DNA from: Spirochaetia bacterium
GTDB taxonomy: Bacteria > Spirochaetota > Spirochaetia > DSM-2461
DNA: 64,000 nt
NCBI GenBank assembly: GCA_963668315.1
Contig: OY764216.1
Span: forward strand, 3,264,001 to 3,328,000
Direction: 5' to 3'
Part shown: piece after piece, positions 26,188 to 45,291 of the stretch
Numbering within the stretch: the first letter of the stretch is position 1
Layout of the letters: every line of letters begins with the position of its first letter
Program-made: the position numbers and the translations under genes
Notes under the pieces: generated by a model
Told to the model about the DNA's origin: nothing
Databases searched by the model: none
What the model saw: only the letters and a program-made list of their open reading frames with translations

Positions 26188-26237
26188 GACTATTCTACCT
26201 TGTTGTCAAGGAGATTCATAAATGGGAGGATTATATA

Positions 26238-26681: not shown

Positions 26682-26708
26682 TTCTCATAAGGAAAGGGAG
26701 AGCTATCT

Positions 26709-26957: not shown

Positions 26958-28141
26958 AAGATATAGAGAAAATACCCAACTGGATAACTGATAAGGTTGA
27001 GCTGGCCGAATCATGCTGGCCCAGGGCGGGAGGAGACAGGGCAAATCGTTCCCATGTTTCTATTCCCGGGCCGGATAAGGGAGAAATAATAAAAGAGATT
27101 GAACTGCCCATAGAGGAGAACGAGGACTTTTTCAGAGGAGTGTGGGGCTGCGTTGTCACGGATCACAATGACTTAAGGGTGCTTTACCGTGGCGTTTTAA
27201 CTGCGTTGACTATGGAGGGAGATCTCCTGTGGTATGTCAGGTTGAGTGATATTCCCGATATGGTTCCCGGTTACCAATTATGTCCTGTTGCCATAAAGGA
27301 TGGAGGTTGTCTCGTTCCATTAGAGAATGGAATCGTTATCCTGGATAATCAGGGGAAAATGTTTTCCAGATCGATTTTCGAAAAATCTCCATAGCCGATG
27401 ATATTCCCATTATCATTCTTGATGCTGATAATGACTCCGATGATGTTATGCACAACCATCGCTTTATATTGGAGGATACTCCGAATATTACAGAAGGGGG
27501 GGATATTATTGTCTCCGGTTGTTTTTTGGGTAATGTATTGCGGATTAATCAATCGGGAGTAAAAAATCTTGGCAATTTCGGCTATGACATTCCTTCGGTC
27601 GCCATTTATCCCGATAATTCGATGGCAATTTCCGGTTATTACCGTGCCGGTTTCTGCCGGGTAGACCGAGAGGGTAAAAAAGTATGGTCTACTCCTTTAG
27701 CGTATGCCGATTGTCTCCCGACAATCAATCGGAATAATGTAGCCGTCGTTGGCTCTCTTAATGATGGACTTTCTTCTTTTTTTACTGCAGAGGGATCACA
27801 AATCGGCAGCTATCATCGAACGGCTGTTTTCTCTGAGTATTCTCAGGATTTCTGGATTGCCCGGTCTGAGGAATATTGCAAAACTTTCTATTGACGGACA
27901 GGAGATCTGGGGGGGAGAACTCAGTGATGATGTGTCATTCAAAAATTACAAACCTATTGTCGACGGGACCGGTCGTATCTATGTCTTGGATAGTGATCAG
28001 CTTCTTTGTCTTTCTGGAGAAGGTGAGATTGTCTTTTCGCTTGCCTTTACGGAGCAGGAGAAATCCGTGAGAAGTCTCAGTTGTATATCTCCGGGAAGAA
28101 TGGCTCTCATTAATCATGGGAAATTGTTAATTATCGGGTAG
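26954..28141 (+). pseudogene. PQQ-like beta-propeller protein in three frames (two frameshifts)
   Basis: WPRAGGDRANR...GP start; propeller-like repeats (EGDLLW, EGKKVWS, DGQEIWG, PIVDGTGRIYV) spread over ORFs 26954, 27448 and 27749. Confidence 0.6.
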
Positions 28142-28180
28142 TGTTAAGAAGCCGGCAGGCGAACAGGATAAGGGGTATTT

Positions 28181-28516
28181 ATGAATAGGATGAATGAGGA
28201 AACAATAGACAATTTAAGCACTTATTATCATCTTCAATATTTCTTTTTTAACGGTATTGAATTCGTTCTGGATTCCCATAATCGGAAAAATTTTCTTGTT
28301 TATGAGTCATCCGGGGAAGAGAGGGATTTGGGAACAATAACTGCTGATTCCGATGAAGAGCTTCGTGAGAAAACAAGTGCTTTGGTGAAGAAAATGAAAC
28401 ATGACAAGTTTTCAACAGACCGGTGTTGGAGTGAAGAGTGGAGGGATTTATTTGAAGCTGAATCAATGGTTAAATCTGATAATTTATCGAGTCATCATAG
28501 ACAGGGCGGATTCTAG
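28181..28516 (+). CDS. Hypothetical protein (111 aa)
   Basis: ORF with AAGGGG RBS, co-oriented with neighbours. Confidence 0.55.
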   Translation: MNRMNEETIDNLSTYYHLQYFFFNGIEFVLDSHNRKNFLVYESSGEERDLGTITADSDEELREKTSALVKKMKHDKFSTDRCWSEEWRDLFEAESMVKSDNLSSHHRQGGF

Positions 28517-28586
28517 TAGATCACCTTTCCGTATGTATAGTATATAACGAATTAAATCCATATAAACGTATTTCTTTACTCCCTGT

Positions 28587-28605
28587 CGTTGCTGTATCTG
28601 CAACG
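28587..28605. promoter_or_regulatory. Candidate operator CGTTGC-N7-GCAACG
   Basis: Perfect 6-bp inverted repeat with 7-bp spacer upstream of 28657. Confidence 0.45.
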
Positions 28606-28656
28606 TTATGAAATCAGAGTATTTATGTCTGAATGTGATTTCGGCGGGAGGCTATT

Positions 28657-29307
28657 ATGAATGAACGGGTTGAAATATTGGTAAATGGTAAGACTTTTAT
28701 CCTGGATTGCAGCGGGCTGGAATCTTACGGGGGAAAATGCGTCGTTATGAAACCGGAGTGGATGGCGGGAGAGGATATCTGGTTGTTCCAGGATGATGAT
28801 CCGGATAATCCCGAATTGTATTATGTAAAAGGGACAGAAATCACATCGATAGGTTATTCTGCCCTGAACGTTGAACTGGAAAGAAGGCTTCATTTCAGAA
28901 CACATCTTGAAGGCGTTTCAAAGGAGGACTTTCTGGAGGAGCTGATTCTTTCAGCAGGGACTTTCTTTATTGAGGAGTGGAAGAGTACTCTGAAGTCAAA
29001 AACATGTGCCGATAAAATGGAAAAATCCCTTGAGGAGCGGGACTCCGAATTTTCTTCCGGTGAATTGATTTTCTTAAAAAGGGTTGTCCGTGAAGAAAAT
29101 GAAAGGCTGGAAGAGAAGATGGAGGAGCACAGTCTGCGCTTTCACAGAATTATTACTTCACTATTTAAAGAAAATACGGGTTTTACCCTGGAAGAGAAAG
29201 AAGTGAAGGCATTGATTCGTCATTGGAATATATACAGGGAATGGGGGATGGAAGAGCTGGTTTCTGATTATGTTTTTCCTCTAAAGATCAACTATGCGGG
29301 ATATTAA
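28657..29307 (+). CDS. Hypothetical protein (216 aa)
   Basis: GGAGG RBS; N-terminal region similar to ORF 26709. Confidence 0.65.
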   Translation: MNERVEILVNGKTFILDCSGLESYGGKCVVMKPEWMAGEDIWLFQDDDPDNPELYYVKGTEITSIGYSALNVELERRLHFRTHLEGVSKEDFLEELILSAGTFFIEEWKSTLKSKTCADKMEKSLEERDSEFSSGELIFLKRVVREENERLEEKMEEHSLRFHRIITSLFKENTGFTLEEKEVKALIRHWNIYREWGMEELVSDYVFPLKINYAGY

Positions 29308-29328
29308 GGTTAATATCCGTTTTTTTTT
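29296..29328 (+). terminator. Intrinsic terminator
   Basis: GGATATTA-AGGT-TAATATCC stem followed by T9. Confidence 0.65.
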
Positions 29329-29333
29329 AGTTT

Positions 29334-29367
29334 TTTTACATGACAGACTGGGATGAGTCTTGTAAAA
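29334..29367. promoter_or_regulatory. Inverted repeat upstream of WYL-2
   Basis: TTTTACATGAC-N12-GTCTTGTAAAA (10/11 match). Confidence 0.45.
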
Positions 29368-29390
29368 TGGTTAAAAAGAATATTAAAAAA

Positions 29391-30317
29391 ATGGATAGAT
29401 TGGAGCGGATAAAACAGATAGAAGAGATTCTCCTGGCCAATAACAAGGGCTGGACCCGGGCGGAACTGGCAAAGCGGTTCGGCGTGGACCGATCCACTGT
29501 AAAGCGGGATATCGACCGCATCCAGGAGAAGGACCTTTTGCCCCTGAGACTGGAGGGAGAGAAAATCTATCTGAACTGTTCCGCTTCGTTGAGCCATATT
29601 CCCATGGACATGCACGAGATGCTGGCCCTTCATCTGGCCACCCGCCTGCTTGTGAGAAAGAGCAGTTTTGCCTCTGAACATTTTATTTCCCTTCTCAGAA
29701 AGATATCCTCTTCCTTTGCGGATCATTCCGAGTTGATAAGCCGGTATATCGGCGATACAGCCGATGGGTTTGAAGAGCTGAATCGGGGGCGGGTGAACCA
29801 CAGGCGCACGGAGAACCTGGAACTGCTGAACCGGGCCTGGGCTGAGCAGAAGAAGGTGAAAATCCAGTACAAGGTTAAGGATACGGTTAAATCCTATACC
29901 TGCGGAATTTACTGCTTTGAACCCTATGCGGACGGAGTTTCGCTTTATGTGATCGCCCAGTGCGACGGGAAGGAACGGCTGAGCCATTTTAAGCTGGAAC
30001 GGATCCAAAACGTTAAGATAACCCGTGAGGGGTATGAGATACCCGTTGATTTTAATCCCCACCGGTATTTCCGGGATTCCTGGGGCATCTGGGTATCCCA
30101 TGAACAGCCGGTACGGGTGCGGCTTAAGTTTAATGCGGACGCGGCTGAGCGGATACGGGAAAACCGGTGGCATGTGTCCGAGGAAATAGAGGAGCTGGGG
30201 GACGGCGGCCTGGTATGGAGCGCCTGGATCAGCGAACCGAAGGAGATGGTGCCCTGGGTGCGGAGCTGGGGGGATCAGGTCGAGGTGCTGGAAGGTATTA
30301 ATATTAAGGTAGATTGA
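29391..30317 (+). CDS. HTH-WYL-WCX transcriptional regulator (WYL-2), BrxR/CapW-like position
   Basis: ELAKRFGVDRSTVKRDI HTH; PYADGVSLYVIA...FKLERI; WVRSWGDQVEVLE; start uncertain (29340-29391). Confidence 0.9.
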   Translation: MDRLERIKQIEEILLANNKGWTRAELAKRFGVDRSTVKRDIDRIQEKDLLPLRLEGEKIYLNCSASLSHIPMDMHEMLALHLATRLLVRKSSFASEHFISLLRKISSSFADHSELISRYIGDTADGFEELNRGRVNHRRTENLELLNRAWAEQKKVKIQYKVKDTVKSYTCGIYCFEPYADGVSLYVIAQCDGKERLSHFKLERIQNVKITREGYEIPVDFNPHRYFRDSWGIWVSHEQPVRVRLKFNADAAERIRENRWHVSEEIEELGDGGLVWSAWISEPKEMVPWVRSWGDQVEVLEGINIKVD

Positions 30318-31270
30318 CAGTGTTTTTTACAAGTGATTCACAATCGATTTTCAATTATAGAAATTTTATCATGTCTATGGATAAGATCGTTATATTCTCT
30401 CCCTACATAAAAGAGTCAGCCATAAAAACTTTATTAGAGGGTTCTGAAAGTAAGGTAGAGACAATTATTACTACTTGGAAACCTATGGATTTAGCCATAG
30501 GAGTTACTGATCTTAGTATTTATCCCTATTGTAAAAAGTACAATATTCAACTTCTGATAAATAATCGGATCCATTTGAAAAGTATAGTATCAAGAAATTT
30601 TGGAAGTTGTACTATTTCTTCTGCAAATCTAACCAATAAAGGATTAGCATTATCTAATAATTATAATTTTGAACTTGGAACAATTAAGGATAATCTTTCC
30701 ATTGAGGAGAAGTGTTATTTTGATTCGATTATAGATAATTCGATTCTTGTTACAGATGACTATTATATGAGGATTAAAGAACAGGTTGAAAACATACCAG
30801 AAAAGATTCTTGACGTTCCTGAAGAGTTTGTACAACCACCAAAGGAGGAGAGATGTCTATCATCTGAATTGCCATATTTTGATAAACCACAAGATTTATT
30901 TGATGTCATTACTAACAGAGAAAATTACAGTGAAGAAGAAATCCGAAGTGCAATACATGATCTTAGGTTATATAATGTCATTAACGTAAATAATCAACAA
31001 CAGCTAATCACAGTACTGAGGAAAGAATTTAGGAATCATTTCTTTATTAAAGAATTTCTTAAGTTTAATTCTGATGGTAAACGATTTGGAGAATTAACAG
31101 CATGGCTTCATGATAAGATTGAAAACGTCCCTTCCCCAAAACGATATGAAGTGAAAGAATATTTACAGAGAATATATACATATATTGGATATTTACTTGA
31201 GGATGAATTCCAAATAACTATTCCGGGACGTCATTCTCAGGTTTTACAGAGGATAAGTAAATATGAGTGA
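30314..31270 (+). CDS. Phospholipase D-family (HKD) nuclease-like protein
   Basis: FSPYIK, IHLK, SSANLT...NFELG; TTG start overlaps the WYL-2 stop. Confidence 0.75.
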   Translation: MTVFFTSDSQSIFNYRNFIMSMDKIVIFSPYIKESAIKTLLEGSESKVETIITTWKPMDLAIGVTDLSIYPYCKKYNIQLLINNRIHLKSIVSRNFGSCTISSANLTNKGLALSNNYNFELGTIKDNLSIEEKCYFDSIIDNSILVTDDYYMRIKEQVENIPEKILDVPEEFVQPPKEERCLSSELPYFDKPQDLFDVITNRENYSEEEIRSAIHDLRLYNVINVNNQQQLITVLRKEFRNHFFIKEFLKFNSDGKRFGELTAWLHDKIENVPSPKRYEVKEYLQRIYTYIGYLLEDEFQITIPGRHSQVLQRISKYE

Positions 31271-32027
31271 TAATATAGGGCAGTATATAAAGAATATCTC
31301 AGTTGGTATATCTGTTGGGATTAGTACAAGAGAAAGAAGAAATGAAATTTATAAAGGTATTGTTAAAAAGTTACTAACAAAAAGTGAGTTTCATACACAT
31401 GGGATAATGGTTGAATTAGTGGATGGAACGATTGGAAGAGTAAAAGAGATTTATTCTTCTAGCGATAAGAATAACGATAACAATAACCCTGAAAAAAAAA
31501 TACCTGAAGAAGAGCTCAATACAAATGAAAAGTTAAATAGTAATAGAACGCCCCAAATGGATTCAATCTCAATAGAAGAGGATGATACAGGTTATTCGTA
31601 TAGAAATTTATTTTACCCTTATATAAAGAATGCAACGGAAGTTGTTCTTGAAGATGCATATATTCGTATGGAACATCAAATAAAAAACCTTGGTTTCTTT
31701 TGTACTTTGTTTAGTGATCAGGATAATAAAATCAAGTTCCATCTTAAGACTAATTCAGATAATTCATTCAAAGAGCAGGAGCAAAAAAGAAAACTTGAAG
31801 AATTAAGAAAAAACCTTGATGAACTGAATATTCTCTTTACTTATGAATTTGATGAGACACTACATGATCGAATTATTCGGACAAATACTGGATGGAAAAT
31901 TATTCTTGGCCGGGGACTAGATATTTATAAAGATCCAGGTTCGTATTATTCTCCAGCAAATTTTGATCAGACAAAGCGGAAGTGTAAAAAAACAGAAATA
32001 GTATTTATTAGGAATAAAGATGATTGA
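31263..32027 (+). CDS. YwbE/DUF2196-like + MIT_C (PLD-like) fusion protein
   Basis: N-terminal GIVKKLLTKSEFHTHGIMVELVDGTIGRVKEI; C-terminal GYSYRNLF...EDAYIR...LHDRIIRTNTGWKIILGRGLDIY. Confidence 0.7.
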   Translation: MSDNIGQYIKNISVGISVGISTRERRNEIYKGIVKKLLTKSEFHTHGIMVELVDGTIGRVKEIYSSSDKNNDNNNPEKKIPEEELNTNEKLNSNRTPQMDSISIEEDDTGYSYRNLFYPYIKNATEVVLEDAYIRMEHQIKNLGFFCTLFSDQDNKIKFHLKTNSDNSFKEQEQKRKLEELRKNLDELNILFTYEFDETLHDRIIRTNTGWKIILGRGLDIYKDPGSYYSPANFDQTKRKCKKTEIVFIRNKDD

Positions 32028-33633
32028 ATTAGAAAATGTGTTATTCAGAATGGGACTTACAGATTTGGAAGTTTTAGTAAATCCTGTTGTATATGAGCTG
32101 ATCAGTTTATATGAAAAAAACCCCAATAAAAAATCTATTATATCAATGATTCTTAAAACAAATGATATGGGGACTTTCCTAATGAACAAAATCTCTAGGA
32201 ATCTCATTTTTGATTTTCTTACAGATGACGAGATAAATGATCTAATCAGACAGTTAGGTATTTCTTTAAGTGTATCTTCTAGAACAGATTTACAATATAC
32301 AAAATTCTCAAGTAGTAGGATTCAAATCCTAAGTGATTTTTTAGGAATAGAAATCACTTCTTTTATAGAAGAAATTACAGTAAATGAATGTATTCAAAAA
32401 GTTATACCAGAATATTCTCTATTCTTTCATCAAGAAGTTGCGGTGATGAATGTTCTCAATGTTCTAGATAAAAAGAATCGAGTTCTTTTACACATGCCAA
32501 CTGGATCTGGAAAAACTAGAACAAGTATGAATCTTATATCTCAGTTTTTTAGGCGTGTTATCGCAAAAGGTGGAAAACAAATAGTATTGTGGTTAGCTGA
32601 TACTGAGGAATTATGCGATCAAGCTGCTGATGAATTTATAAAGGCTTGGAAGAACTTAGGTTCTTGTCCTTTGAATGTATACCGTTTTTATGGTGATCAT
32701 GAGCAAGATTTTGAAAATATTAATACAGGAATTATCATTTCTGGACTTCAAAAGATGCTGTCCTTTTTATCTTGTAATCAAGAGGTTGTTTATAAATTAG
32801 CTTCTTCAACAAGTCTTGTCTTTTTTGATGAAGCTCATAAAATAATTGCTCCTACATATAAACATCTTGTAGAGTTATTTACATTGACAGTATCACAAAA
32901 AACGAAATTAATTGGTCTTACTGCAACACCAGGGAGATCAATCGTTGATGAAAGTGAAAATGATAGGTTAGCATCTTTTTTTGATTATTCGAAAGTTACA
33001 TTAAGAGTTGAAGGATATGATAATCCAGTTGAATATCTACAAGATGAGGGATATTTAGCTCAAGTCGAATATCATGAAATACCATATTATTCGGAAAATC
33101 TATCGCTTACACAAAGTGAGATAGATCAGATTTCAAGTGGAAATGATATTAGTATACGAATATTAAAAAAACTTGGGCTTGATGCTGTTAGAAACTTAAA
33201 GGTGCTTAATAAAACATTAGATGAAGTTAAGTTAAATAGTCATATTATTATATTTGCTTGTTCTGTTGAAAATGCCATAGCCATAAATTCATTATTACAA
33301 TATAAGGATATAAAAAGCGGGATTGTAATTTCAAAACAGGATAAGACTACACGTCGGCTAACTATTGAGAAGTATAGAACTGGAGAATTGGATGTTATTG
33401 TTAATTATGGTGTATTAACTACAGGTTTTGATGTTCCTAGTACAAATGTGGCGATTATAGCAAGGCCAACAATGTCATTAACTCTTTATAGTCAAATGGT
33501 TGGTCGAGCAATTCGAGGAGAAAAAGCTGGTGGAAATAGTCATAGTAGGATTTATACGGTAGTTGATAATATAATTCCTGGATTTAGAAGTGTTGTTAAG
33601 TCATTTGACCATTGGGATGATGTCTGGAAGTAA
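32020..33633 (+). CDS. SF2 DEAD/DEAH-box helicase (ResIII-like)
   Basis: MPTGSGKT, DEAH, GLTATP, TGFDVP, QMVGRAIR. Confidence 0.9.
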   Translation: MIELENVLFRMGLTDLEVLVNPVVYELISLYEKNPNKKSIISMILKTNDMGTFLMNKISRNLIFDFLTDDEINDLIRQLGISLSVSSRTDLQYTKFSSSRIQILSDFLGIEITSFIEEITVNECIQKVIPEYSLFFHQEVAVMNVLNVLDKKNRVLLHMPTGSGKTRTSMNLISQFFRRVIAKGGKQIVLWLADTEELCDQAADEFIKAWKNLGSCPLNVYRFYGDHEQDFENINTGIIISGLQKMLSFLSCNQEVVYKLASSTSLVFFDEAHKIIAPTYKHLVELFTLTVSQKTKLIGLTATPGRSIVDESENDRLASFFDYSKVTLRVEGYDNPVEYLQDEGYLAQVEYHEIPYYSENLSLTQSEIDQISSGNDISIRILKKLGLDAVRNLKVLNKTLDEVKLNSHIIIFACSVENAIAINSLLQYKDIKSGIVISKQDKTTRRLTIEKYRTGELDVIVNYGVLTTGFDVPSTNVAIIARPTMSLTLYSQMVGRAIRGEKAGGNSHSRIYTVVDNIIPGFRSVVKSFDHWDDVWK

Positions 33634-33648
33634 TAGGAGAGATAATAG

Positions 33649-35451
33649 ATGGATTATAGAATATTTCCTACTGAATTAGTAATAGATTCTATGAAGGATA
33701 GTGGTTACAAAGATGCCGCTCATGCTGTTGCCGAATTGATTGATAATAGCATTCAGGCAGGTGAGGAATTAAGTCAAAAAACTGAAGTTGAGTTGATTTG
33801 TATAGAAAAAGATCAATTTTTATCTGAAAGAAGAACATCGCATATAGAGAAAATTGCTGTCTACGATAATGCTTGTGGAATGACAAAAGATATTCTTTCT
33901 TTTGCTTTGGCTTTTGGTCATGGAACTAGAAAAAATGCTTCATCAGGAATGGGGAAATTCGGAATGGGATTACCTAATGCTTCAATTTCTCAATGTGATA
34001 GAGTTGATGTATGGAGTTGGGTTAATAACGAAATCTACCATACTTATTTGGATATAGATGAAATTATAGAACAGAAAAAAGAGATTGTTCCTGAACCCGT
34101 ATTAAAGGAATTCTTACCTGTGGAATGGGTAAAACGAATTTCTTCTGAAATTCGAGAGTCGGGAACTTTAATTGTTTGGAGTAAACTAGAACGGTTAAAA
34201 TGGAAAAGGCATAAAGCATTTTTTTCAAATACAGAATTTATTATTGGACGAATGTATAGATATTTTATTCGTGATAATAAATGCTCTATTCGATTTGCAG
34301 CATATTCAAAAGATAGCACCGTATTAGCAGAAACATACGTTAAACCAAATGATCCATTATATTTAATGACGAATTCGCAGGCCCCTTTTATTAAAGATAT
34401 TAATTGGGATTGTTCATCAGAGTCTGCCTTTTTTAATATAAATCCGACAGATCAAGAACTTAAAGTTAAATATAAAGGTTCTGAATCGTCAATATTTATC
34501 AGAACTACAAAAGCAAGAAAGGAAATAAGAAGACCTCTTGCTGAGTTAGGTAAAAACCCAGGTGATACTGCATTAGGTAAACAATGTGCTAAAAATCAAG
34601 GAATCTCAATTGTTCGATCAGGGAGAGAATTGGAATTAAATCGAAGTTTTGACATTGCATATGATCCTGTCGAGAGATTTTGGGGAATGGAGATCGAATT
34701 TTCTCCCTGTTTGGACGAAGTCTTTGGAGTAACAAATAATAAACAAGCGGCTACAGCTTTTAAACCTTATGATCGAAAAGAATTAGCAGAAGATGAGGGT
34801 TTGTTGCTATTTGAGTTTGAAGAGTATTTGGAGAATGAAGATGAAGCAAGATTCATTCTTCTGCAGGTGTCAAATGCTATAACAAGTCATTTGAAAGCGA
34901 TAAGAGCTGAATTAAAAAGAGATACAGAAGGTGTAAAAAAGAAGAATCAATCTGAAAATATAGATAGATCGGAACAAATTGCATCCGAATATAAATTGAC
35001 TGATGGTGAAACTGGATATAGTGAAACTCATAGTTTAGAACTCTCCGAAGATGATAAGAGACAAGAAATAATTGATGAATTACATTTTGATGGTTTAGAC
35101 CTTGATGATGAATTAATTGAACAAATTGTTCAGAATTGGCTTGATAAGGAAGGCTATATAATCACATCTGCTCCTATTAGAGCAAGTAGAGTTATATTTG
35201 ATGTCTCTTATCCGGCAGGGAAGCTTAAAGTTACTGTGAATGAGAATCATCCCGCGTTCAAACATTTTATTTCAGAACTAGATGAAGATGAGAGCGGAAA
35301 AGATATATTAAGACTTCTCTTTGCATCATGGGCTCGTTTAGAAGATAAGTATAGACTTCAATCAGATAAAGACGCTGAATTATTTGAGCAGATTAGAATG
35401 GAGTGGGGACAGATTGCAGAGAAGATGATTAGCAAATATATAGATTCTTAA
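33649..35451 (+). CDS. GHKL (MORC/Hsp90-like) ATPase
   Basis: AELIDNSIQA, DNACGM, GKFGMGL, SGTLIVW. Confidence 0.85.
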   Translation: MDYRIFPTELVIDSMKDSGYKDAAHAVAELIDNSIQAGEELSQKTEVELICIEKDQFLSERRTSHIEKIAVYDNACGMTKDILSFALAFGHGTRKNASSGMGKFGMGLPNASISQCDRVDVWSWVNNEIYHTYLDIDEIIEQKKEIVPEPVLKEFLPVEWVKRISSEIRESGTLIVWSKLERLKWKRHKAFFSNTEFIIGRMYRYFIRDNKCSIRFAAYSKDSTVLAETYVKPNDPLYLMTNSQAPFIKDINWDCSSESAFFNINPTDQELKVKYKGSESSIFIRTTKARKEIRRPLAELGKNPGDTALGKQCAKNQGISIVRSGRELELNRSFDIAYDPVERFWGMEIEFSPCLDEVFGVTNNKQAATAFKPYDRKELAEDEGLLLFEFEEYLENEDEARFILLQVSNAITSHLKAIRAELKRDTEGVKKKNQSENIDRSEQIASEYKLTDGETGYSETHSLELSEDDKRQEIIDELHFDGLDLDDELIEQIVQNWLDKEGYIITSAPIRASRVIFDVSYPAGKLKVTVNENHPAFKHFISELDEDESGKDILRLLFASWARLEDKYRLQSDKDAELFEQIRMEWGQIAEKMISKYIDS

Positions 35452-35551
35452 TGATGCTTCTCTATAATTATACCACTTGAATTAAAATTAACCTTTCTAT
35501 TTTCTCAATAGGAGTATATACTATAAAGTATCTCTGGGGAGGGGTAAAACT

Positions 35552-36730
35552 ATGCTTCCAGAAATGGATTCGAGCATATATTTTGATAATAATGCCACAA
35601 CACGACTAATTCCCGAAGTTATAGAAGAGCTTGAAAAAGTCATAGTAACACCCTACGGAAATCCTTCAAGCGCTCATAGTTTCGGAGATTTTAGTCGTAA
35701 AATAATTCAAAATGCTCGAAATAATGTCTCCTTATTATTAGGTTGTAATGATGATCAGATAATGTTTACATCAGGTGCATCAGAAGCGAATCTAACTGTT
35801 CTTCAAAATGTACTGAATCGTAATGATGTCGCAAAATGCATAATTACATCACCTTCTGAGCATTCCTCAATTAAAGAGAACTGTGCCTTTCTATCATTTA
35901 AAGGTTTTCATGTTATTGAGCTAAGTTTAGATTCAAATGGAATAGTGAATATTGATCAACTGAAGAAGATTGTTGAAGAACATGATATCTCATTAGTCAC
36001 GATCGGGTGGGCTAATAATGAAACCGGTGTGATACAACCGATAGAAGAGATTGCTACAATATGTAAAGAAAGCAATATCCCCTTTCATACAGATGCTTCA
36101 CAATTTTTTGGAAGAGGTAAAATTGACGTTTCAAAGTTGAATATAGATTTTTTATCTTTTACAGGTCATAAATTGCATGCTCCACAAGGTATTGGTGCTT
36201 TATATGTTAAAACACCAAAGATGTTTATCCCTTTGCAACGTGGGGGAGAGCAGGAGCATCATATGAGAGCTGGGACTGAGAATGTTTTAGGGATTGCTGG
36301 ATTAGGCAAGGCAATTGAGTTGAGAATTCGTGATTTTGAAGATTCTCAACAGAGACTTCAATATTTAAGGGATTACTTCGAGAAATCAATCGAAAAGCAA
36401 ATTGATGGTATTAGGATAAATGGGAAAAAAACTCTGCGTACTCCAAATACAAGCAATATTCAATTTTGCGGTATTGATGGTAGAGCCTTAGTTGCTCAAT
36501 TAGATATGGCTGATGTGTATTGTTCTCAAACTTCTGCATGCACAAGTATGATTCCTGAGCCTTCAGCAACATTAAGAGCTATGGGACTATCTGTGGATGA
36601 AGCATTTGCATCAATACGGTTTAGTTTTGCTATAGATAATACATTCGAAGAGATAGATAGAGCGGTAGCTATTATTAAAGAAAAAGTGGAAACGATTAGA
36701 AGGTTTTATAACCTCCGGGGAGCAATATGA
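35552..36730 (+). CDS. sspA: Cysteine desulfurase (IscS/DndA/SspA type)
   Basis: YFDNNATT, NNETG, TGHKLHAP (PLP Lys), SACTS (catalytic Cys); coupled to the DUF4007 gene. Confidence 0.85.
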   Translation: MLPEMDSSIYFDNNATTRLIPEVIEELEKVIVTPYGNPSSAHSFGDFSRKIIQNARNNVSLLLGCNDDQIMFTSGASEANLTVLQNVLNRNDVAKCIITSPSEHSSIKENCAFLSFKGFHVIELSLDSNGIVNIDQLKKIVEEHDISLVTIGWANNETGVIQPIEEIATICKESNIPFHTDASQFFGRGKIDVSKLNIDFLSFTGHKLHAPQGIGALYVKTPKMFIPLQRGGEQEHHMRAGTENVLGIAGLGKAIELRIRDFEDSQQRLQYLRDYFEKSIEKQIDGIRINGKKTLRTPNTSNIQFCGIDGRALVAQLDMADVYCSQTSACTSMIPEPSATLRAMGLSVDEAFASIRFSFAIDNTFEEIDRAVAIIKEKVETIRRFYNLRGAI

Positions 36731-37647
36731 GATTTGGTGGTCATCAAACATTCTCAATACGAGATGGTTGGTTGTATAAAGGTCTTGAATTACTAATGGA
36801 TACAACAGAAGCCTGGAAGTTAACGGATGATTTTGCCATGGATTATTTGGGTGTTGGTCGAAATATGGCTAAATCTATCAACCACTGGTTGCTTGCGACA
36901 GGTTTAGCAGAGAAAGCAACTGAGACTAATGAAAAGGGCAAGACTATCATAAAAAAGGACTTAATTCCGACTCCTCTTGCTCAAATAATATGGAATAAAG
37001 ATCCCTATTTTCTTGATTTAAATACATGGTGGTTTCTTCATATTAATCTCATTCATAACGAAAGTGACGCAGCTTCATGGAATTGGTTTTTTAATAATTT
37101 CTCTATGGAGAGATTTCAAAAAGAAAAATGTGTTAAGAGTTTGGAGCGATATGAGAAAATCCATTCATCAAGAGTTCCTTCCATTACGACCCTTGATAGG
37201 GATATTAGTTGTTTATTAAGCAGTTATTCTGTAGATATCCCTTCCATGAAGAAAGATCCGGAAGATGAGATTGATTGTCCTTTCCAAGAATTAGGATTAA
37301 TGAAGTCATTTAGACATTCCGGATTTTTTGAATTAAATAGGAACAGTAAGGATATTTGTCCAGAAGTCTTTTTATATGCATTAACATTATCGAATCCATC
37401 AGATAGTGATATTAAGAAAATTGATATTCCTTTCTTTGATATGATCAATAAGCAAAGTAGTCCTAGTAAGGTTTTTCTTCTTGGGAATGAAGGTGTTTTT
37501 GAGCTTTTATTAGCATTGGAAGCAAAATCTTCAGATATATCGATTCATGGTTTAGCGGGAGAGAGACTAATTCAGTACACCAATAATTCCCCTATTCATT
37601 GGATAAAACGTTATTTTGAACAAGACTCAGAGAGAGAAGCTATATGA
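36727..37647 (+). CDS. sspB: DUF4007 protein (SspB-like)
   Basis: FGGHQTFSIRDGWLYKG, LGVGRNMAKSINHWL, DPYF, DPEDEIDCPFQELGL. Confidence 0.85.
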   Translation: MRFGGHQTFSIRDGWLYKGLELLMDTTEAWKLTDDFAMDYLGVGRNMAKSINHWLLATGLAEKATETNEKGKTIIKKDLIPTPLAQIIWNKDPYFLDLNTWWFLHINLIHNESDAASWNWFFNNFSMERFQKEKCVKSLERYEKIHSSRVPSITTLDRDISCLLSSYSVDIPSMKKDPEDEIDCPFQELGLMKSFRHSGFFELNRNSKDICPEVFLYALTLSNPSDSDIKKIDIPFFDMINKQSSPSKVFLLGNEGVFELLLALEAKSSDISIHGLAGERLIQYTNNSPIHWIKRYFEQDSEREAI

Positions 37648-40600
37648 TTGCAGAAAAAGAAAGTTTAAACATTCAAGATATATTAAGATCTATCAATATT
37701 TTATATGATGCAGAAAACGCACAGCGAATTGCTCATTTTCAACCGACAAGCAAAGCTGTTGTTCTTATAGAGTCATTACTAGGTCTTAGGAAGGACAAAG
37801 CCTTTTTTATATCTGCTCCTTATGGTTCTGGTAAGTCTATTACTAGCACATATTTATTACATAGTATTGAAAACCGAAAAGAGTCATATGATGTTCTAAA
37901 TTCATTACATGATCGCGTTATTAACGTTTCACCGGATGCGGGGACACTATTAAAATCTCGTTTAACACAAGGAAATAAAGGAATTGTGATAGCTCTTCAG
38001 GGTTATCAGGAAAATCTGAATGATGCTATAAAACAAGCGATAATACATAGTCTAGAAAGGCATAAACTAGATTCAAACAAAATCCTAGAAGGATTGAAGT
38101 TCAACAGTCTAAATAATGCTATTCAAAGTATAATAGAGGTTAGATCTAAAGGATTCGATAGTATCTGTATTATTTGGGATGAGTTTGGACGTCATATCGA
38201 GAGTTTGATTGAAGAAGGACAGTCATCTCAGTTAAATCATCTCCAAACCCTTGCTGAGTTTGCTAGCCGTTCGGATGTTCCTTTTACATTGGGACTTCTT
38301 TTGCATCAGAACTTAATGAATTATGCAGGAAAAACTCCTCAGTCAGTTAAACGGGAATGGAAGAAAATAGAAGGACGTTTTGAAACTATCCAATACATTG
38401 ATGATTCTAAGGAAATTTATTCTCTTATTGCTAATGTGATAGAGAATATAAAAGAGGATGATTCAGAAAAATTTATTTCTTTTCCCCAAATTGATGTCTT
38501 CCATCAGAATAAACTTTTCCTTGAATTCTCTAAAGAACAATTATTTGAAATCTTCAAAAAGGCTTTTCCATTATCTCCTGCCGCTCTATTTATATTGCCA
38601 AAATTATCTTCTCGTATTGCCCAGCATGAGAGAACACTCTTTACTTTTCTCAATGCGGTAGATTTTAAGCAGAGAATCCACGTCGGTGTCTTATACGATT
38701 ATTTCTCCGATGCCATGAGTCAAGATACAGCTGTAGGTGGAGTTTACCATCAGTGGTCCGTAACAGAGAGTGCTATTAGTAAGGTTGATGATCCTTTTGA
38801 AATTGAAGTATTGAAAACTCTCAGTTTGTTGAACGTTTCTACGGCAATTGATAAGGGGAGAGTCTCAAAAGATTTATTATCTGAATCATTACAGCAAAAT
38901 GGTTTTGATGATCATGCAATTAGTAGTGTAGTTGATCGTTTACTAGAGAAAAAACTACTTCTTTATAGAAAGAATACTGATTCTATTACAATTTGGCATG
39001 GCACTGAAGTGGATTTATTCAGCCGATTGCGAGATGAGAAGGATCGTTTATCTAGTTCTTTTGATGTAATCGAATATATCGAGACCCATTTTGAGCCAAC
39101 ACACTGGAAACCCGTTGAATATAATAATCAGAATAAGATTCATCGTTATTTTAGAAGCGAGTACATTGGATTTGAAAAATTAAAGATTCTTATTAGCGAA
39201 GGAATTGATAGTCTATTCAAAAATAATTACGACGATGGACGATTGTTTTTTTATATTCCTTCATCAGACGATGAATTAAAGATGGGGAAAAACCTTATTT
39301 TTGAAGAGGGACAGCACAATCAAATCCTATGGGCAATTCCTCATAATAAGTTAGATATATATGATATAGCCCTTGAAGTTGCAAGCTATACAAATATGCT
39401 TGAAGACACATCTTTATTAGAATCTGATCCTTTTATCGAAGATGAAATTAATCAACTATTAGATGATTCAATGGAGTATCTTCAGAAGCTTGTAGATACA
39501 GCAACTAAGCCATCTAAGAAAGGGCCAATTTTTATATACAGTAATGATGCAATTGCGATTTCTTCACCCCGAGAGTTACGTAATTATCTTTCTTATATCA
39601 TGAATGATGTATTTAATCTGACTCCAATTTTAAATAATGAGATGATTGTTAAGCAAAATCTCCGTTCTAATCTTGTTAATGGTAGAAAGAAATTACTCTT
39701 TGCTATTATGGATAATACGGGAGCAAAGGATTTGAATCTTGAAGGATTTACTCCCGATGTTTCTATGTTTAGATCCTTACTCTTAAATTCTGGTTTATAC
39801 AGGCAGGTAGGAACAGGGGAGGGTGTTGATACTTGGGTTTTTGCTAAAACATCAGAAATCAGAGATGAAGGTCTAAAAGCTGTCTGGGAAGAACTACAGA
39901 GATTCTTTACAACACCTGGTGAGAAAAAACAATTTTCTCAATTGCTTGATAATTTAAAAAGACCTCCCTATGGATTAAGAAAAGGCGTTATACCCATTCT
40001 AATTGCCAGTGCCTTAAGAGCCTTTCCGAGTGTCATTTCTATAACACATATGAAAGAAGGATATTTAAGCGATATACTTCCTTCTGATTTGGAGAAAATT
40101 TGCGAGTCTCCAGAAGAGTATCTTTTAGCTGTGGAATCTTTAAATGATACGAGAACTCTTTTATTAACAAAATTATATGAGTTGTTTGCTCCTGAAGGAA
40201 ATATCAGTTCCCGTGAAATGGATTTAATTAGAAAGACATATGACGCTATAGAAATGTGGAAGAGTAACCTTCCTGAAGCCTCTATGACTTCTCGACGAAT
40301 ATCTCAGGATACTAGGATTTTTCAAGAGATTATTCGATCGATAAAAGATCCTCGTAATACTTTCTTTCAAAAGATCCCGAGTAAGTTCAATAGTACTGAT
40401 ATCGATTATCTTTTTTCTGCTGTTAAGAAAAGCAAAGAGGAGTTAGAAGGGATAACTGAAGCTTATTACGACTTAGCAGCAAAAAGTATTCTGAGCACCT
40501 TACAAATGCCTTCTTTGGAAATATCCGGTGTTAGTCATGCTGTAGGGACCTGGGTCACGTATCTACCGGATGAACTCTTCAAACGGTTTAAAGACTCTAT

Positions 40601-40934
40601 TGCTAAAGCCTTATTAGTCCGATTAAGAATGCCCTATGAAGATCATCGATTATTGATAGATTCCGTTGCTGGGTTATTGATCGGAAAACCCGTTAGCAAA
40701 TGGGATGATAGTACATTTACTGTTTTCGAAAGAGAGTTTCAAGAGAACATTCACCGTATAGAAGATTATGTACTGAATCATACTCCCCAGGGGCATAAGG
40801 GTAAGGCACATATGAATCTTGCTAATTTAGCACTAACCAGAATTGATTCCCTTTATAGGAAAGTCTGTGATCTTATCGGAGATGAAGAAGAAGCAAGACG
40901 TCTTATAAATGAGAAGTTAAATGGAGGAATATAA
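37644..40934 (+). CDS. sspC: Large P-loop ATPase (SspC-like)
   Basis: Walker A APYGSGKS, Walker B IIWDEFG, EWKKIEGRF, QHERTLFTFL, PPYGLRKG. Confidence 0.85.
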   Translation: MIAEKESLNIQDILRSINILYDAENAQRIAHFQPTSKAVVLIESLLGLRKDKAFFISAPYGSGKSITSTYLLHSIENRKESYDVLNSLHDRVINVSPDAGTLLKSRLTQGNKGIVIALQGYQENLNDAIKQAIIHSLERHKLDSNKILEGLKFNSLNNAIQSIIEVRSKGFDSICIIWDEFGRHIESLIEEGQSSQLNHLQTLAEFASRSDVPFTLGLLLHQNLMNYAGKTPQSVKREWKKIEGRFETIQYIDDSKEIYSLIANVIENIKEDDSEKFISFPQIDVFHQNKLFLEFSKEQLFEIFKKAFPLSPAALFILPKLSSRIAQHERTLFTFLNAVDFKQRIHVGVLYDYFSDAMSQDTAVGGVYHQWSVTESAISKVDDPFEIEVLKTLSLLNVSTAIDKGRVSKDLLSESLQQNGFDDHAISSVVDRLLEKKLLLYRKNTDSITIWHGTEVDLFSRLRDEKDRLSSSFDVIEYIETHFEPTHWKPVEYNNQNKIHRYFRSEYIGFEKLKILISEGIDSLFKNNYDDGRLFFYIPSSDDELKMGKNLIFEEGQHNQILWAIPHNKLDIYDIALEVASYTNMLEDTSLLESDPFIEDEINQLLDDSMEYLQKLVDTATKPSKKGPIFIYSNDAIAISSPRELRNYLSYIMNDVFNLTPILNNEMIVKQNLRSNLVNGRKKLLFAIMDNTGAKDLNLEGFTPDVSMFRSLLLNSGLYRQVGTGEGVDTWVFAKTSEIRDEGLKAVWEELQRFFTTPGEKKQFSQLLDNLKRPPYGLRKGVIPILIASALRAFPSVISITHMKEGYLSDILPSDLEKICESPEEYLLAVESLNDTRTLLLTKLYELFAPEGNISSREMDLIRKTYDAIEMWKSNLPEASMTSRRISQDTRIFQEIIRSIKDPRNTFFQKIPSKFNSTDIDYLFSAVKKSKEELEGITEAYYDLAAKSILSTLQMPSLEISGVSHAVGTWVTYLPDELFKRFKDSIAKALLVRLRMPYEDHRLLIDSVAGLLIGKPVSKWDDSTFTVFEREFQENIHRIEDYVLNHTPQGHKGKAHMNLANLALTRIDSLYRKVCDLIGDEEEARRLINEKLNGGI

Positions 40935-41746
40935 TGGCAACATTAGAAGAAGCATTAGCTACAGTAGACAATAAAGAATATAGACATATCATTCCTGTTT
41001 CTGGAGGAAAAGATTCTGCAGCGTTAGCCATCTATATGAAACAGAAATATCCCCAGATAAATGCAGAGTATGTTTTTACTGACACAGATTGTGAACTCCC
41101 CGAGACTTATGAATATCTAGAGCGATTACAGGGGTTACTAGGAAAAGAAATACATAGAACCAATGCTCTTGATACATTAAATATAGATAGAAAACCAGGG
41201 CGCAAGGCTTTTGAGATTTATCTGAATGAACTCTATGGTGGATACCTTCCTAGTCCAAGATCTCGTTGGTGTACGGGAGTTCTAAAGATTAAACCTTTTG
41301 AACAGTGGGTAGGGAATACCACAGCTTTTAGTTATATCGGTATACGAGGTGATGAAGACAGAGAAGGTTACGTTCCCAAAAAGCCACCGAAACTTTCAGA
41401 GAAAGCCAATATTATTCCTGTTTACCCCTTTAAAGAAGATGGTATCACGCTGAGTGATGTTAAGGAGATCTTGGAAGAAGCGGGAATTGGATTACCGAAG
41501 TATTACGATTGGAGAAGTCGTTCCGGTTGTTATTTTTGCTTTTATCAGCAAATAGGGGAGTGGCAGGGGTTAAAAGAAAATCATCCTGATCTGTTTGAGA
41601 AAGCAAAATCTTTTGAAAAAACACGTGGTGATAAAAAATTTACTTGGGTAGAAGGACGATCTCTGGTCGAATTAGAAAAAATGAAGGAGCGTTTCGCTGT
41701 AGCCGATATGGATGAGACTGAAGGCTGCGCGATTTGCCATTTGTAA
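40934..41746 (+). CDS. sspD: PAPS-reductase-family protein (SspD-like)
   Basis: PP-loop SGGKDS, RWCT, RSRSGCYFCFYQ, C-terminal CAICHL. Confidence 0.88.
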   Translation: MATLEEALATVDNKEYRHIIPVSGGKDSAALAIYMKQKYPQINAEYVFTDTDCELPETYEYLERLQGLLGKEIHRTNALDTLNIDRKPGRKAFEIYLNELYGGYLPSPRSRWCTGVLKIKPFEQWVGNTTAFSYIGIRGDEDREGYVPKKPPKLSEKANIIPVYPFKEDGITLSDVKEILEEAGIGLPKYYDWRSRSGCYFCFYQQIGEWQGLKENHPDLFEKAKSFEKTRGDKKFTWVEGRSLVELEKMKERFAVADMDETEGCAICHL

Positions 41747-41958
41747 AATTATTAACGAAACGAACTATATAGAATTAGGATGATTATTAGCATGTCTCTC
41801 CAATTGTGATTCCTGGTGATCTGGCAATATAAAAGTTCCCGATTTGTTAATAAACAAGTCATATAAATGCTAAAATATGATTTATTCAAGTCGATATGTA
41901 AAATATTATTTTATCTATTATTATAAATATTTTTCATAATAGAAATGGAGTTAGTTAA

Positions 41959-43496
41959 ATGAGTCAGCCATTTAAGCATAGTGCGGATAGTCTGCTTAGT
42001 TTTTTTTCACAACCTGGTCGCGGCTTCTACGTCCCTTATTATCAAAGAAATTATTCCTGGGATGAGGATAATGCAAGTAAACTTATATCAGACATTATTG
42101 GAGGGGTTAAGAGAGCTCTGAATAAACCCAACAATAGTATTTTTCTTGGTACAGTTATTCTGCATGATGAAAACAATGTGGAGGTGGGAGTGCATACTGA
42201 CACACCTAATCTCTTAACAAAAGTTTCGAATGTTGTTGATGGTCAACAACGGATTTCCTCTTTAGGAATGCTCGCTTGTACTCTTAGTTATATAATTCAG
42301 GATACGGTTCAAGAATTGAATCAATATATATCTTCTGCATCAGAAATTGCTACTTTAGTGCAGGAACTTCAAAATCAAAAGCTAGATCTGTTTGATTTTT
42401 TCTGTGTCGAGATAAAAAAAGGTGGAGCTCAACCAAATCTCAAACCACTAATTATCAGAGCTGGTGATGTGACATCAAATCCTGTATCTGATCAATGGAC
42501 ATTAGCAGGTAGTGGGAATCATTTTTATCGATCAAATACAGCTAGCTTTTTTTCTGAATTTATCAGTGGGAATCCTTTTCTTAGTATAAATAAAGATTCT
42601 AGAGTTGAGTGCGTAGTAAATACTTATATTGATCAAATTAAAAACGAACTTGGATCGGTTGATTCGGTTTTCGCTCGAAGTTTATTAAGTGCTAATAGTA
42701 CTCAAGGTGGGAGTCTCAATAACTTTATGGATTATCCGCCTAATCTTAGTAATATAAATAATCTGCCAAATAATGAGCAAAAAGTATTTTACAGTGGAAT
42801 GATGCTTCTAGCTATTTGTCATTTCTTAAAAAGTGCTTGTCATTTTGTAGTTATTGAATGTCAGGATGAGGGTATAGCATTTGATATGTTTCAATCTTTA
42901 AATGCAACAGGAACCCCTTTGACCGCATTTGAAGTATTCAGGCCAGTTATAGTAAAGAAATATGGAACAGGTTATGCTAGTACTATCAAGGACGAAGTTG
43001 ATCGAATAGAGAGCGTATTTGAAAAAGAAAGTACAGCTAGTGGTAAAGAGGAATTAACTGATAAAGTGATTGCTTCAGCCGCTCTTGCATATGATGGTTC
43101 AATCATAAGTAATAGATTCAGCGAAGAACGTGATTGGCTTATTGATACATTTCAGCCGCTAAGTGGGCAAAATGCTAAAGATTTTGTATGTTGTATTGCT
43201 AGTCAAGCTGAATATCGAGATAATATTATTCGTCCCAGAAAATCCCCAAAAAACTCTCAAAACATCAAACTTGTTAATCACTTGTTAAGTCTCGGTTTGA
43301 ATCCTCAGCAGGCTGATATGTCTGCATTCTGTATTTTTTATCTTCGAGATGCTGGACATAAATTTGCTCATAGCGTTATCAGTGTTTTTTATGCTAAACT
43401 TCTTTCATCTCAAGGGAACACTACTAAGGTAGCCTCTGCAGCTAATGAGTTTTTATCGATCTGTAAAGCAACAGCAGCCTTTTTTACCCTTTGGAT
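41959..43496 (+). pseudogene. sspE: SspE-like effector, 5' part (DUF262/ParB-like NTPase domain), interrupted by insertion
   Basis: VPYYQRNYSW, VVDGQQR, FQSLNATGTPL; frame runs into an IS end at 43497. Confidence 0.85.
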
Positions 43497-43943
43497 TATG
43501 CTGAGCCCACAGGGTAAACCAGTACTTTAAATATTTAAGTTGGAATTCCCGATTCATGATAATATGAAAAGGGAGAAAATCAATGAAGAGAAAATTCGAT
43601 GAAGAGTTCAAAGCGAAAGTAGCACTGGAAGCGTTAAAGGAAGAAAAAACTCTTCAGGAACTGGCTGAGGAATATGAAGTACATCCGAACCAGATCAGTA
43701 TGTGGAAAAAACAGCTTATGGAAAATGCCAGTTCCCTCTTTGTCCGAAAGAATAAAAAAGACAAAGAACTGGAAGAAATGAAGAAAAAAGAGCAGGAACT
43801 TTTCAAGCAGCTGGGTGAAGCTAATTATGTGAACGAATTTCTAAAAAAAAAGTACAAACAACTATACGGGAAGGATTACAAATGATAGAGCCGGATCATA
43901 GGAAATTGTCTGTCCGGAAGCAATGTAAAATTCTCAATGTCAG
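43497..43943 (+). mobile_element. IS3-family element, truncated left copy (IRL + orfA 43583..43885 + start of orfB)
   Basis: Matches 51241..51687 (identical orfA translation); ends abruptly at the IS256 terminus. Confidence 0.9.
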
Positions 43944-45291
43944 GATAGTGTCCAGCCATGTTCGCAACTTTCCTTTCAAGAAGCCATCAAAATTCCCCAT
44001 TAGGCAGCCTGACCTAATTTAATTCTTTGTTCATCAATCGATTTCTCACTGATATACCGTTTTCCCGAAGCCCAGTCTTCTGAGTATTCAATCAGGTAAC
44101 AACAGACTAGTCTAAGGTAGGAGTCAATACTGGGAAAGATTCCCACAACACGAGATCGTCTACGGATTTCCCGATTCAATCGTTCCAGTTGATTGGTAGA
44201 AGCAGTTTTCCGGCTGTCTATTTCTGAGAATTCATAATACTGAAGAGAGTCTTCTAATCCGTCTTCAAGACAAGTCATGGACTTCGGAAATTGTTCTTCA
44301 AATTCCTCTATAATTCGGTATGCATATTCACGGGCCGATTGGGAGTTCGGTTGATTCCAAATCTGCTTAATTCTGCCGGCAACAGCTTCTTTATCCCTGG
44401 CAGGAAGATGGGACAGGATGTTCCTCATAAAATGGATTTTACAGCGTTGCCAGGAGCAACCGATGAGTTCCTTTCTTATGGCGGCTTGAAGTCCCAGATG
44501 GGCATCAGAGACACAGAGCCAGGCATTTTTAAATCCTCTTGCTTTAAGAGACCTGAACAGTTCGGTATAAGTGCTTTCTGATTCTTCCTGCATTGGTTCA
44601 ACAGCAAGGATTTCTTTGAATCCTTGTGAATTAACACCAGATACAACCATCACAGCCATATTTCTCACTCTTCCGTTATACCGGATCTTTTCATAGAGGG
44701 CATCAACCCAGATGACAGGATATTCTGAATCAAGAGATCGATAGCGGAATTCATCTACCTGTTCATCAAGTCCCTTATTGATTTCAGAGACCTGGCTGGC
44801 TGAAATATTTTCAATGCCCAGACTCATAGCCAATTTCTCAATCTTTCTGGTTGAAACACCGTTGATAAATGCTTCCTGGACAACCTGAATCAGAGCTTGC
44901 TCGGATCTCTTCTTTTCTGTTACAAAGAAGGGAATATATCCGCCTTTTCTGAGCTTGGGGACAAGGAGATACAGTGTTCCAAGACGAGTATCAAATCGGC
45001 GTGGTCGATATCCAGAAAAATGGGTGGATCTTCCCGTAGAATGAGACCCCTTTTGAGCTCCTACTTTATTCGCCGCTTCTATTTCCATAAGCTTTTCCAG
45101 TAGCCATTTCAATAAGCTGAAAATGGGATCCGGTTCCGAAATGAATTGGAGTAGCATTTTTTCCAGATTACCATTATCATTTTCCTTAGCCATCGTTTTC
45201 TTCCTCCATGGTTTTAGTTGTGCATTACCATTCTGGAGAATTCGATGGCTTCTTTCAATAATTAAAATTGCGAACTTGATTGTACGCTATC
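43944..45291 (-). mobile_element. IS256-family element
   Basis: Imperfect 24-bp IRs GATAGTGTCCAGCCATGTTCGCAA / TTGCGAACTTGATTGTACGCTATC; flanks not duplicated. Confidence 0.88.
44000..45193 (-). CDS. IS256 (Mutator-type) transposase
   Basis: VPKLR, GVSTRK, WVDALYEK, VSDAHLGL, WQRCKIHF, TNQLERLNREIRRR. Confidence 0.92.
   Translation of the reverse strand: MAKENDNGNLEKMLLQFISEPDPIFSLLKWLLEKLMEIEAANKVGAQKGSHSTGRSTHFSGYRPRRFDTRLGTLYLLVPKLRKGGYIPFFVTEKKRSEQALIQVVQEAFINGVSTRKIEKLAMSLGIENISASQVSEINKGLDEQVDEFRYRSLDSEYPVIWVDALYEKIRYNGRVRNMAVMVVSGVNSQGFKEILAVEPMQEESESTYTELFRSLKARGFKNAWLCVSDAHLGLQAAIRKELIGCSWQRCKIHFMRNILSHLPARDKEAVAGRIKQIWNQPNSQSAREYAYRIIEEFEEQFPKSMTCLEDGLEDSLQYYEFSEIDSRKTASTNQLERLNREIRRRSRVVGIFPSIDSYLRLVCCYLIEYSEDWASGKRYISEKSIDEQRIKLGQAA

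Follow-up and report, generated by a model that had tools for sequence, protein, structure and literature searches.

The window analysed here is a stretch of 64,000 nucleotides from a Spirochaetia bacterium (contig OY764216.1 of assembly GCA_963668315.1), in which a run of plus-strand genes lies directly upstream of sspABCD, the writer genes for phosphorothioate (PT) marks on DNA. Three of these genes are the main subject: they encode a nuclease of the phospholipase D (PLD) family with a single HKD motif, a helicase of superfamily 2 (SF2) and a MORC-like GHKL ATPase, referred to below as the trio. A first-pass annotation had described a larger PT-linked effector module, in which the trio was joined by a YwbE-MIT_C protein and led by a WYL regulator. 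The helicase, the ATPase and the PLD nuclease are indeed conserved together with PT-writer genes, whereas the YwbE-MIT_C and WYL genes do not belong to this conserved association.

The run begins with the WYL gene (29340–30317), which encodes a helix-turn-helix (HTH)-WYL-WCX regulator according to Pfam and is located at the edge of a low-GC island. The gene is present on the plus strand as described, but the start given for it, 29391, is an in-frame internal ATG of an open reading frame (ORF) that begins at 29340. The island itself starts at the PLD gene (30314–31270), whose product carries a C-terminal region of two HTHs; a GTG at 30320 is the more likely start of this gene, as it fits the N-termini of the homologues better than 30314. 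It is followed by a gene for a fusion of YwbE (DUF2196, PF09962) with a PLD-like MIT_C domain (PF16565) containing an HDR motif (31263–32027), by the helicase gene (32020–33633; a ResIII/RadD-like helicase or translocase with Pfam ResIII/DEAD/Helicase_C matches) and by the ATPase gene (33649–35451; GHKL and S5 domains, HATPase_c_3, and a helical C-terminal region). The first description also holds for the overlaps at 30314/30317, 31263/31270 and 32020/32027 and for the gaps of 15 bp and 100 bp before the ATPase gene and sspA.

The writer cluster consists of sspA (35552–36730, plus strand as are the following genes; a cysteine desulfurase, PADLOC SspA 7e-122), sspB (36727–37647; DUF4007, PADLOC 3.5e-98, Pfam PF13182), sspC (37644–40934; an ATPase, 2.8e-138) and sspD (40934–41746; a 3′-phosphoadenosine 5′-phosphosulfate (PAPS)-reductase-like protein, 4.6e-95). 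The PADLOC and Pfam matches of all four cover almost the entire profiles, as expected of an intact cluster, and the gene content claimed for the module region and sspA–D is present in the ORFs (PADLOC in its 2023 copy, 17 window proteins scanned). Three sequencing runs of one sample, possibly the source of the assembly itself, each yielded one 71-kb contig identical to the window over 28000–43524; the reading frames are therefore not sequence errors. The ATPase gene has no match among 40 relatives of the host, and a promoter scan returned 34 sites where 51 were expected by chance.

Conservation of the trio beside PT writers

Related loci were fetched for the top 80 of 422 genome relatives, found with the ATPase as a query, and for the top 80 of at least 555 relatives from metagenomes, found with the helicase. 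Six viral-contig loci were added, and the ORFs were labelled with profiles made from the fetched loci. Among the genome loci, 78 have a helicase match (L054 and L057 carry other helicases), 44 a PLD match and 64 a match to sspB/C/D. Where at least 9.5 kb is available on both flanks, sspB/C/D is found in 41 of 45 loci. Of the 16 genome loci that lack ssp genes, 15 had their genomes tested, and 12 of these genomes encode DUF4007 elsewhere; one of the remaining loci, L057, is described below. The metagenome loci, whose contigs are mostly short, contain the ATPase in 77 cases, the PLD in 48 and an ssp gene in 44, and sspBCD is present in all six that have full flanks. The trio is accompanied by sspABCD in all three full-length matches on viral contigs and by DUF4007 in each of the seven plasmid matches inspected out of 13. 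Such adjacency spans 13 phylum-level groups, and the gene order follows 14 patterns, of which the commonest is helicase, ATPase, PLD. The conserved unit is the SF2 helicase with the MORC-like GHKL ATPase and the single-HKD PLD nuclease; in the window, the PLD gene lies upstream of its usual place, and the YwbE-MIT_C gene separates it from the helicase.

As a control, three phylum samples, each with 300 genomes (900 in total, centre genomes excluded), were searched, with a threshold of E ≤ 1e-40 for the ATPase. DUF4007 occurs in 11, 8 and 9 genomes, and these 28 of 900 are not a purely Ssp denominator, since the domain also marks BREX type 4 (PMC12839542). The ATPase occurs in 4, 2 and 2 genomes, and seven of these eight are within the 28 that carry sspB. 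All six strong matches belong to complete helicase-ATPase-PLD trios that have sspB and sspC no more than 20 kb away, and for the two weak, partial ones the 14–20 kb fetched contains neither a helicase nor a PLD match. A strong match is present in 6 of 28 sspB-positive genomes, about a fifth, versus 0 of 872 sspB-negative genomes (Fisher p ~5e-10, a value inflated by kinship, as two of the six genomes share a genus). The co-occurrence with ssp genes across genomes, proposed as a check in the first-pass annotation, is borne out by this sample as well as by the full-flank loci.

The coupling of the parts was described by the correlation of distances in 40 complete loci and the window (41 rows). 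It reaches 0.80 for helicase and ATPase, 0.45–0.52 for the PLD with either of them and 0.58–0.87 within SspBCD (0.87 for SspB–SspC), and it falls to 0.15–0.33 between the trio and SspBCD. As the distances between trio and SspBCD correlate weakly despite the adjacency, the trio moves between writers but stays writer-adjacent; the two modules reassort among each other, yet repeatedly re-pair. The trio is also found beside DndC/DndD or BrxP-like writers. It stands by DndC in L094, L104, L127 and L140 (in L140 with DndD too), and by a BrxP-like PAPS reductase with sspB/sspC in L042 and L069. In Psychromonas marina (L057:5251–21435), the same ATPase family occurs within a PbeA–PbeC locus that has DndD but lacks ssp genes, and this locus is a bridge between the Pbe/Dnd systems and the trio module.

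The nuclease is the part that changes. In 20 of the 80 genome loci the PLD is replaced by a protein of 360 aa, which has a PD-(D/E)xK-like N-terminus and which we take to be Cap4-like. These loci form a proteobacterial clade with support 100 (L014–L024, L027, L029, L030, L034, L040, L043, L046, L047 and L051, e.g., L017:8343–12849). Putative SspE-like genes, identified by blastp or cluster assignment among the 56 active-helicase loci with adequate flanks, are found in 6 of 11 loci that lack PLD versus 3 of 45 that contain it. The constant core is the helicase-ATPase pair; the nuclease can be swapped. Two further variations of layout were observed. The locus L009:3982–11815 holds two tandem helicase-ATPase pairs with a single PLD between them, adjoining sspBCD, and in eight loci (L007, L033, L038, L011, L042, L044, L048 and L061) two-gene DndB/DGQHR-like inserts (U7+U4, U9+U5) occupy the gap between sspD and the helicase.

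Anatomy of the three proteins

The predicted catalytic motifs of all three proteins are intact. In the PLD protein these are H87, K89, S103, N105, N118 and E120; the HxK motif is kept in 85 of 85 full-length homologues from the loci, and the S-x-N and N-x-E motifs are invariant. The Pfam match to PLDc_2 is weak. The structural model (mean predicted local distance difference test score, pLDDT, 89.7) matches the PLD domain of SauUSI with Z 16.4 (root-mean-square deviation, rmsd, 2.1 over 146 aligned residues), followed by Nuc (14.9) and BfiI (14.3). The single HxK, the downstream S-x-N with Glu and the PLD fold are those of Nuc/BfiI-type nucleases. The C-terminal residues ~179–317 match N.BspD6I (Z 7.1), FokI (6.2), SspB (6.1) and BrxA (5.8) in fold, which does no more than suggest a FokI/SspB-like HTH tail. 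Rakesh et al. (PMC10853773) treat the HTH module of the FokI/SspB/DndG type as a DNA-recognition or modification-discriminating part.

The helicase has Walker A (K165), the DEAH box (D270–H273) and motif VI, all intact and invariant in 37 aligned homologues, behind a family-specific N-terminus of ~130 aa. Its closest solved relatives in the PDB are RadD (4.9e-37) and SauUSI (3.8e-22), and the best PADLOC match is the helicase part of PbeA (8e-30). The ATPase contains the complete GHKL motifs (E29, N33, D73 and GxxG), examined in 139 homologues. Its model (pLDDT 85.9) matches the ATPase of SMCHD1 with Z 20.6 (rmsd 4.5, 338 aligned), MORC3 with 18.3 and MutL with 17.7, and the region matching SMCHD1/MORC3, residues 1–436, comprises the GHKL and S5 domains. 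Seven of the eight specified positions of the MORC S5 motif GhXhhpXXRhl are kept in 138–139 of the 139 homologues. Position 10 holds an invariant Glu where the motif calls for a hydrophobic residue, and the protein is therefore labelled MORC-like. The ATPase has no sequence match in the PDB and none in the phage collection at 1e-20; the Atlas search returned only unnamed or PLDc clusters.

Local neighbours and the interrupted sspE gene

The WYL gene resembles the host rather than the island. Its GC content and GC content at third codon positions (GC3) are 0.52/0.64 beside a host GC of 0.51, while the genes from PLD through sspE show 0.30–0.39/0.18–0.30. At the 3′ end of the WYL gene the GC content falls from ~0.53 to 0.30, and the WCX match ends at position 60 of 76, at this composition break. 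The step and the short WCX match suggest that the island was joined at this point. A 60% paralogue of the gene exists at another place in the genome, and homologues of the WYL gene were found by blastp in 2 of the 80 genome loci and in none of the 80 metagenome loci, so that the description of the module as WYL-led is not upheld. Upstream, at 25175–29307, there is a second WYL gene on the minus strand followed by a series of short ORFs, of which five were scanned and none has a Pfam family.

The YwbE-MIT_C gene is coupled to its neighbours by overlaps and its GC content is like that of the rest of the island. The MIT_C and YwbE profiles built from 150 representatives find it in none of the 166 related loci, and its proposed place as an effector member was abandoned. 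As YwbE-MIT_C and WYL are not found with the trio in related loci, the conserved module comprises three genes. The YwbE-MIT_C C-terminus matches the C-terminus of BrxL (3e-41), at profile positions 505–696 only, an HKD-like tail. The fusion of YwbE with MIT_C occurs in 7 of the 150 representatives, and the predicted protein may be an additional local nuclease. MIT_C domains are joined to many differing N-termini, resembling a mobile effector domain, and a stand-alone YwbE is present elsewhere in the genome.

The gene sspE, located downstream of sspD, is broken, as had been claimed. Its 5′ part (41959–43496, plus strand) covers positions 2–512 of the 776 of the PADLOC SspE profile and its 3′ part (52520–53320, plus strand) positions 511–776 (4.5e-142). 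Between them lies a composite unit of ~9 kb (43497–52518), with inverted repeats of insertion sequences (IS) at 43497 and 52518 and a 3-bp duplication outside. The unit, which lies outside the module, consists of a partial IS, a second IS type, the cargo (an AIPR gene, two Fic genes and a nucleoside-deoxyribosyltransferase-like gene) and a full IS. The IS ends are 100% identical to each other and to copies elsewhere in the genome, and 13 full-length, near-identical matches to the second IS occur there; presumably the families are IS3-like and IS256-like. The break had been taken as an argument for a replacement effector. As a sign of replacement it was rejected, because sspE was interrupted recently, by an insertion between identical IS ends, and SspE and the trio thus co-existed at this locus.

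Downstream, a methyltransferase-like gene on the minus strand (53431–55248; Methyltransf_23 below the cut-off) has homologues in 16 of the 80 genome loci and is a frequent companion of these PT loci. At the island's right-hand end (57051–62901, minus strand), there are two tandem pairs of a transposase and an ATPase, the latter presumably ExeA/TniB-like.

Proposed function and comparison with known systems

The starting point for an interpretation is provided by the intact catalytic motifs, the folds and the near-obligate co-location with PT writers, and every step beyond them is proposed. The trio would be a PT-dependent restriction arm that cuts incoming DNA devoid of host PT marks, a reading to which we assign a probability of roughly 0.6. 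In this scheme, SspABCD would mark a fraction of the host motifs. The GHKL ATPase would dimerise into a DNA clamp and hold the helicase, as the tight co-evolution of the two suggests. The helicase-clamp complex could then travel on duplex DNA and sample a long stretch, which would suit the mark, because only ~14% of sites carry PT (PMC13251355). The PT marks, which the nuclease would most likely read with its FokI/SspB-like HTH tail, would keep the nuclease off. Phage or plasmid DNA without marks would be nicked or cut by one active site that two single-HKD PLD subunits form together. The overall logic would be SspFGH-like, executed by different parts.

Several observations weigh against such a function. 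First, co-location does not distinguish restriction from the maintenance of PT marks, and three genome bins (L026, L062 and L070) have no sspD match, although their contigs stop no more than 0.5 kb from the ATPase. In three metagenome loci (L094, L095 and L111) a cytosine methyltransferase-like gene is also present, and cytosine methylation is possibly the mark there. Second, the fold matches of the HTH tail, with Z 6–7, are in the range of common folds. The tail had been predicted to track SspB/SspC more closely than the nuclease domain does; the prediction failed and was rejected, as the trend is opposite (rho 0.24–0.26 for the tail, below 0.35–0.38 for the nuclease domain). Third, the window PLD is not only displaced upstream, but also has closest relatives other than those of the helicase and ATPase. 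Finally, in the 20-locus PD-(D/E)xK clade the helicase Walker B is dead (DEAH changed to mostly DAE), and translocation is not universal. In 13 of these 20 loci the module adjoins sspFGH, and this dead-helicase form may be an accessory of SspFGH.

The best-surviving alternative, though an improbable one, is that the nuclease is switched on by PT, as in SspE, or acts in a type IV-like manner on modified phage DNA, as in SauUSI, and is harmless without PT. The best fold and sequence matches of the nuclease and helicase to SauUSI speak for it, SspE is activated by PT and non-toxic without it (PMC13251355), and the co-occurrence with writers is predicted here too. However, SauUSI reads the modification by an SRA domain, which is not seen here with Pfam, and the 0 orphan strong matches in 872 sspB-negative genomes favour, slightly and in small numbers, toxicity in the absence of the writer. 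Slightly less probable still is a role in PT housekeeping, in which the trio would install, redistribute, remove or repair PT marks by nicking at a PT site or close to it, unwinding and resecting, by analogy with MutL-UvrD-MutH at mismatches. The MutL-like fold of the ATPase and the combination of an SspB-like HTH and a nuclease in one protein suit this idea, and the strict dependence on PT writers fits it equally well. Nevertheless, the trio occurs in just 6 of 28 sspB genomes, published systems modify DNA by SspBCD and IscS without it (PMC8092258), and the nuclease is exchanged and shows partial complementarity with SspE-like effectors, which would be an effector-type pattern.

An independent defence cassette, which shares islands with ssp genes and nothing more, is quite unlikely. 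The weak correlation of trio-Ssp distances and the position of the window in a low-GC island rich in other defence genes would agree with hitch-hiking, and DndFGH is largely decoupled from its writer (Rakesh et al., PMC10853773). The genome sample largely refutes it (strong matches in 0 of 872 sspB-negative versus 6 of 28 sspB-positive genomes), the adjacency is kept over 13 phylum-level groups and many gene orders, and real island neighbours are missing from related loci (YwbE-MIT_C in 0 of 166, AIPR in none listed). The four-gene effector with YwbE-MIT_C under an upstream WYL regulator, to which the stop-start overlaps linking WYL, PLD, YwbE-MIT_C and helicase and the island-like GC of YwbE-MIT_C would point, was rejected, with a very small residual probability, since neither gene is kept with the trio, the WCX match is short and a step in GC from ~0.53 to 0.30 falls on the WYL 3′ end.

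Restriction of unmarked DNA by the trio stays the preferred reading, and the trio is a likely candidate for an anti-phage system of this kind. More tentatively, at slightly less than even odds, it may represent an unnamed and widespread third Ssp restriction arm, in which a MORC/SMCHD1-like clamp and a translocase sense the density of sulfur marks, license an exchangeable nuclease and serve writers of the Ssp, Dnd and BrxP types. If true, mark-density sensing would mean that a partial, single-strand mark could still define self, and the three proteins offer a system to ask how ~14% marking protects self DNA. Wang et al. reported that 83.9% of 2,678 sspBCD clusters lack both sspE and sspFGH, and suggested undiscovered restriction partners (PMC8092258). 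For a share of these partnerless clusters, the trio offers a concrete candidate. A bacterial MORC-like ATPase would also gain a testable epigenetic role, predicted since 2008, and the compact loci in cultured strains, such as those of Trichormus variabilis ATCC 29413 plasmid A (AVA_RS27545/27540/27535) and Roseobacter litoralis pROLI83, make the idea directly testable with three genes.

The literature searched, with some subscription papers and supplements outside its coverage, contains no description of a helicase-ATPase-PLD trio with PT writers. The EcoSal review gives the PT restriction branches as dndFGH/sspFGH, sspE and pbeABCD. The comparison with the profiles of SspFGH, DndFGH, PbeABCD, Mza and BREX, suggested in the first-pass annotation, assigned the trio to none of these systems. 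SspFGH (PMC8092258) is alike in being a three-gene module by sspBCD and in the role proposed here for the trio, the damaging of unmarked DNA, but it has no homology to the trio: SspF carries a Walker A motif, and SspH resembles FtsK. SspF, SspG and SspH have no PADLOC match in the window and no blastp or profile match, while a positive control finds SspFGH in L017 and L040; by these sequence comparisons, the trio is not SspFGH. SspE (PMC13251355) shares the writer and, as a split gene, the locus, but is a single DUF262-HNH GTPase-nuclease unrelated to the trio. DndF, DndG and DndH gave no PADLOC match at E 0.01 among the window proteins, in a search with no positive control for these models.

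PbeABCD (PMC10853773) is likewise PT-linked, and PbeA combines an HKD nuclease with a related SF2 helicase (22–24% identity to the window helicase). In the trio, by contrast, the nuclease and the helicase are separate genes, accompanied by a GHKL ATPase and an Ssp writer. The window helicase matches only PbeA positions ~248–629, and the match of the PLD profile to PbeA is marginal (E 0.03–0.25). PbeC, a CxC ABC ATPase, and the DndE-like PbeD are absent from the 17 window proteins scanned, with PbeC detected in L057 and L096. SauUSI, a PLD-helicase restriction enzyme (PDB 7clg; PMC12707154), unites a PLD nuclease and an SF2 helicase and is the top fold match of the nuclease. It is one polypeptide with an SRA reader for 5-methylcytosine and 5-hydroxymethylcytosine, has no GHKL subunit and no PT writer; the trio has no Pfam match to SRA, and its PLD and helicase are separate genes, unlike a SauUSI-type chain.

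GHKL ATPases are also part of the anti-phage systems Mza and VcSduA (PMC12137116), and VcSduA requires both ATPase and nuclease, but is a single GHKL-DUF4263 protein. The MzaB match of the window ATPase is N-terminal only, with 46.4 bits against a cut-off of 850, and the other mza match is the AIPR cargo gene alone (67 bits against 1050). For BREX type 4, there is no PglZ match, SspC and SspD score far above BrxC and BrxP, and the BrxL match is limited to 505–696. The predicted MORC/paraMORC restriction-modification operons (Iyer et al. 2008, PMC2292703) contain a GHKL and S5 ATPase, an SF2 helicase similar to Rad25 and type III enzymes and a nuclease that is in some cases of the HKD type. Their nuclease is fused to the helicase and their partner is a DNA methylase, unlike in the trio, and the text of that paper makes no link to PAPS, Dnd or PT. 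By analogy, it is these predicted operons that the trio most resembles in its presumed working, with a PT writer in place of the methylase.

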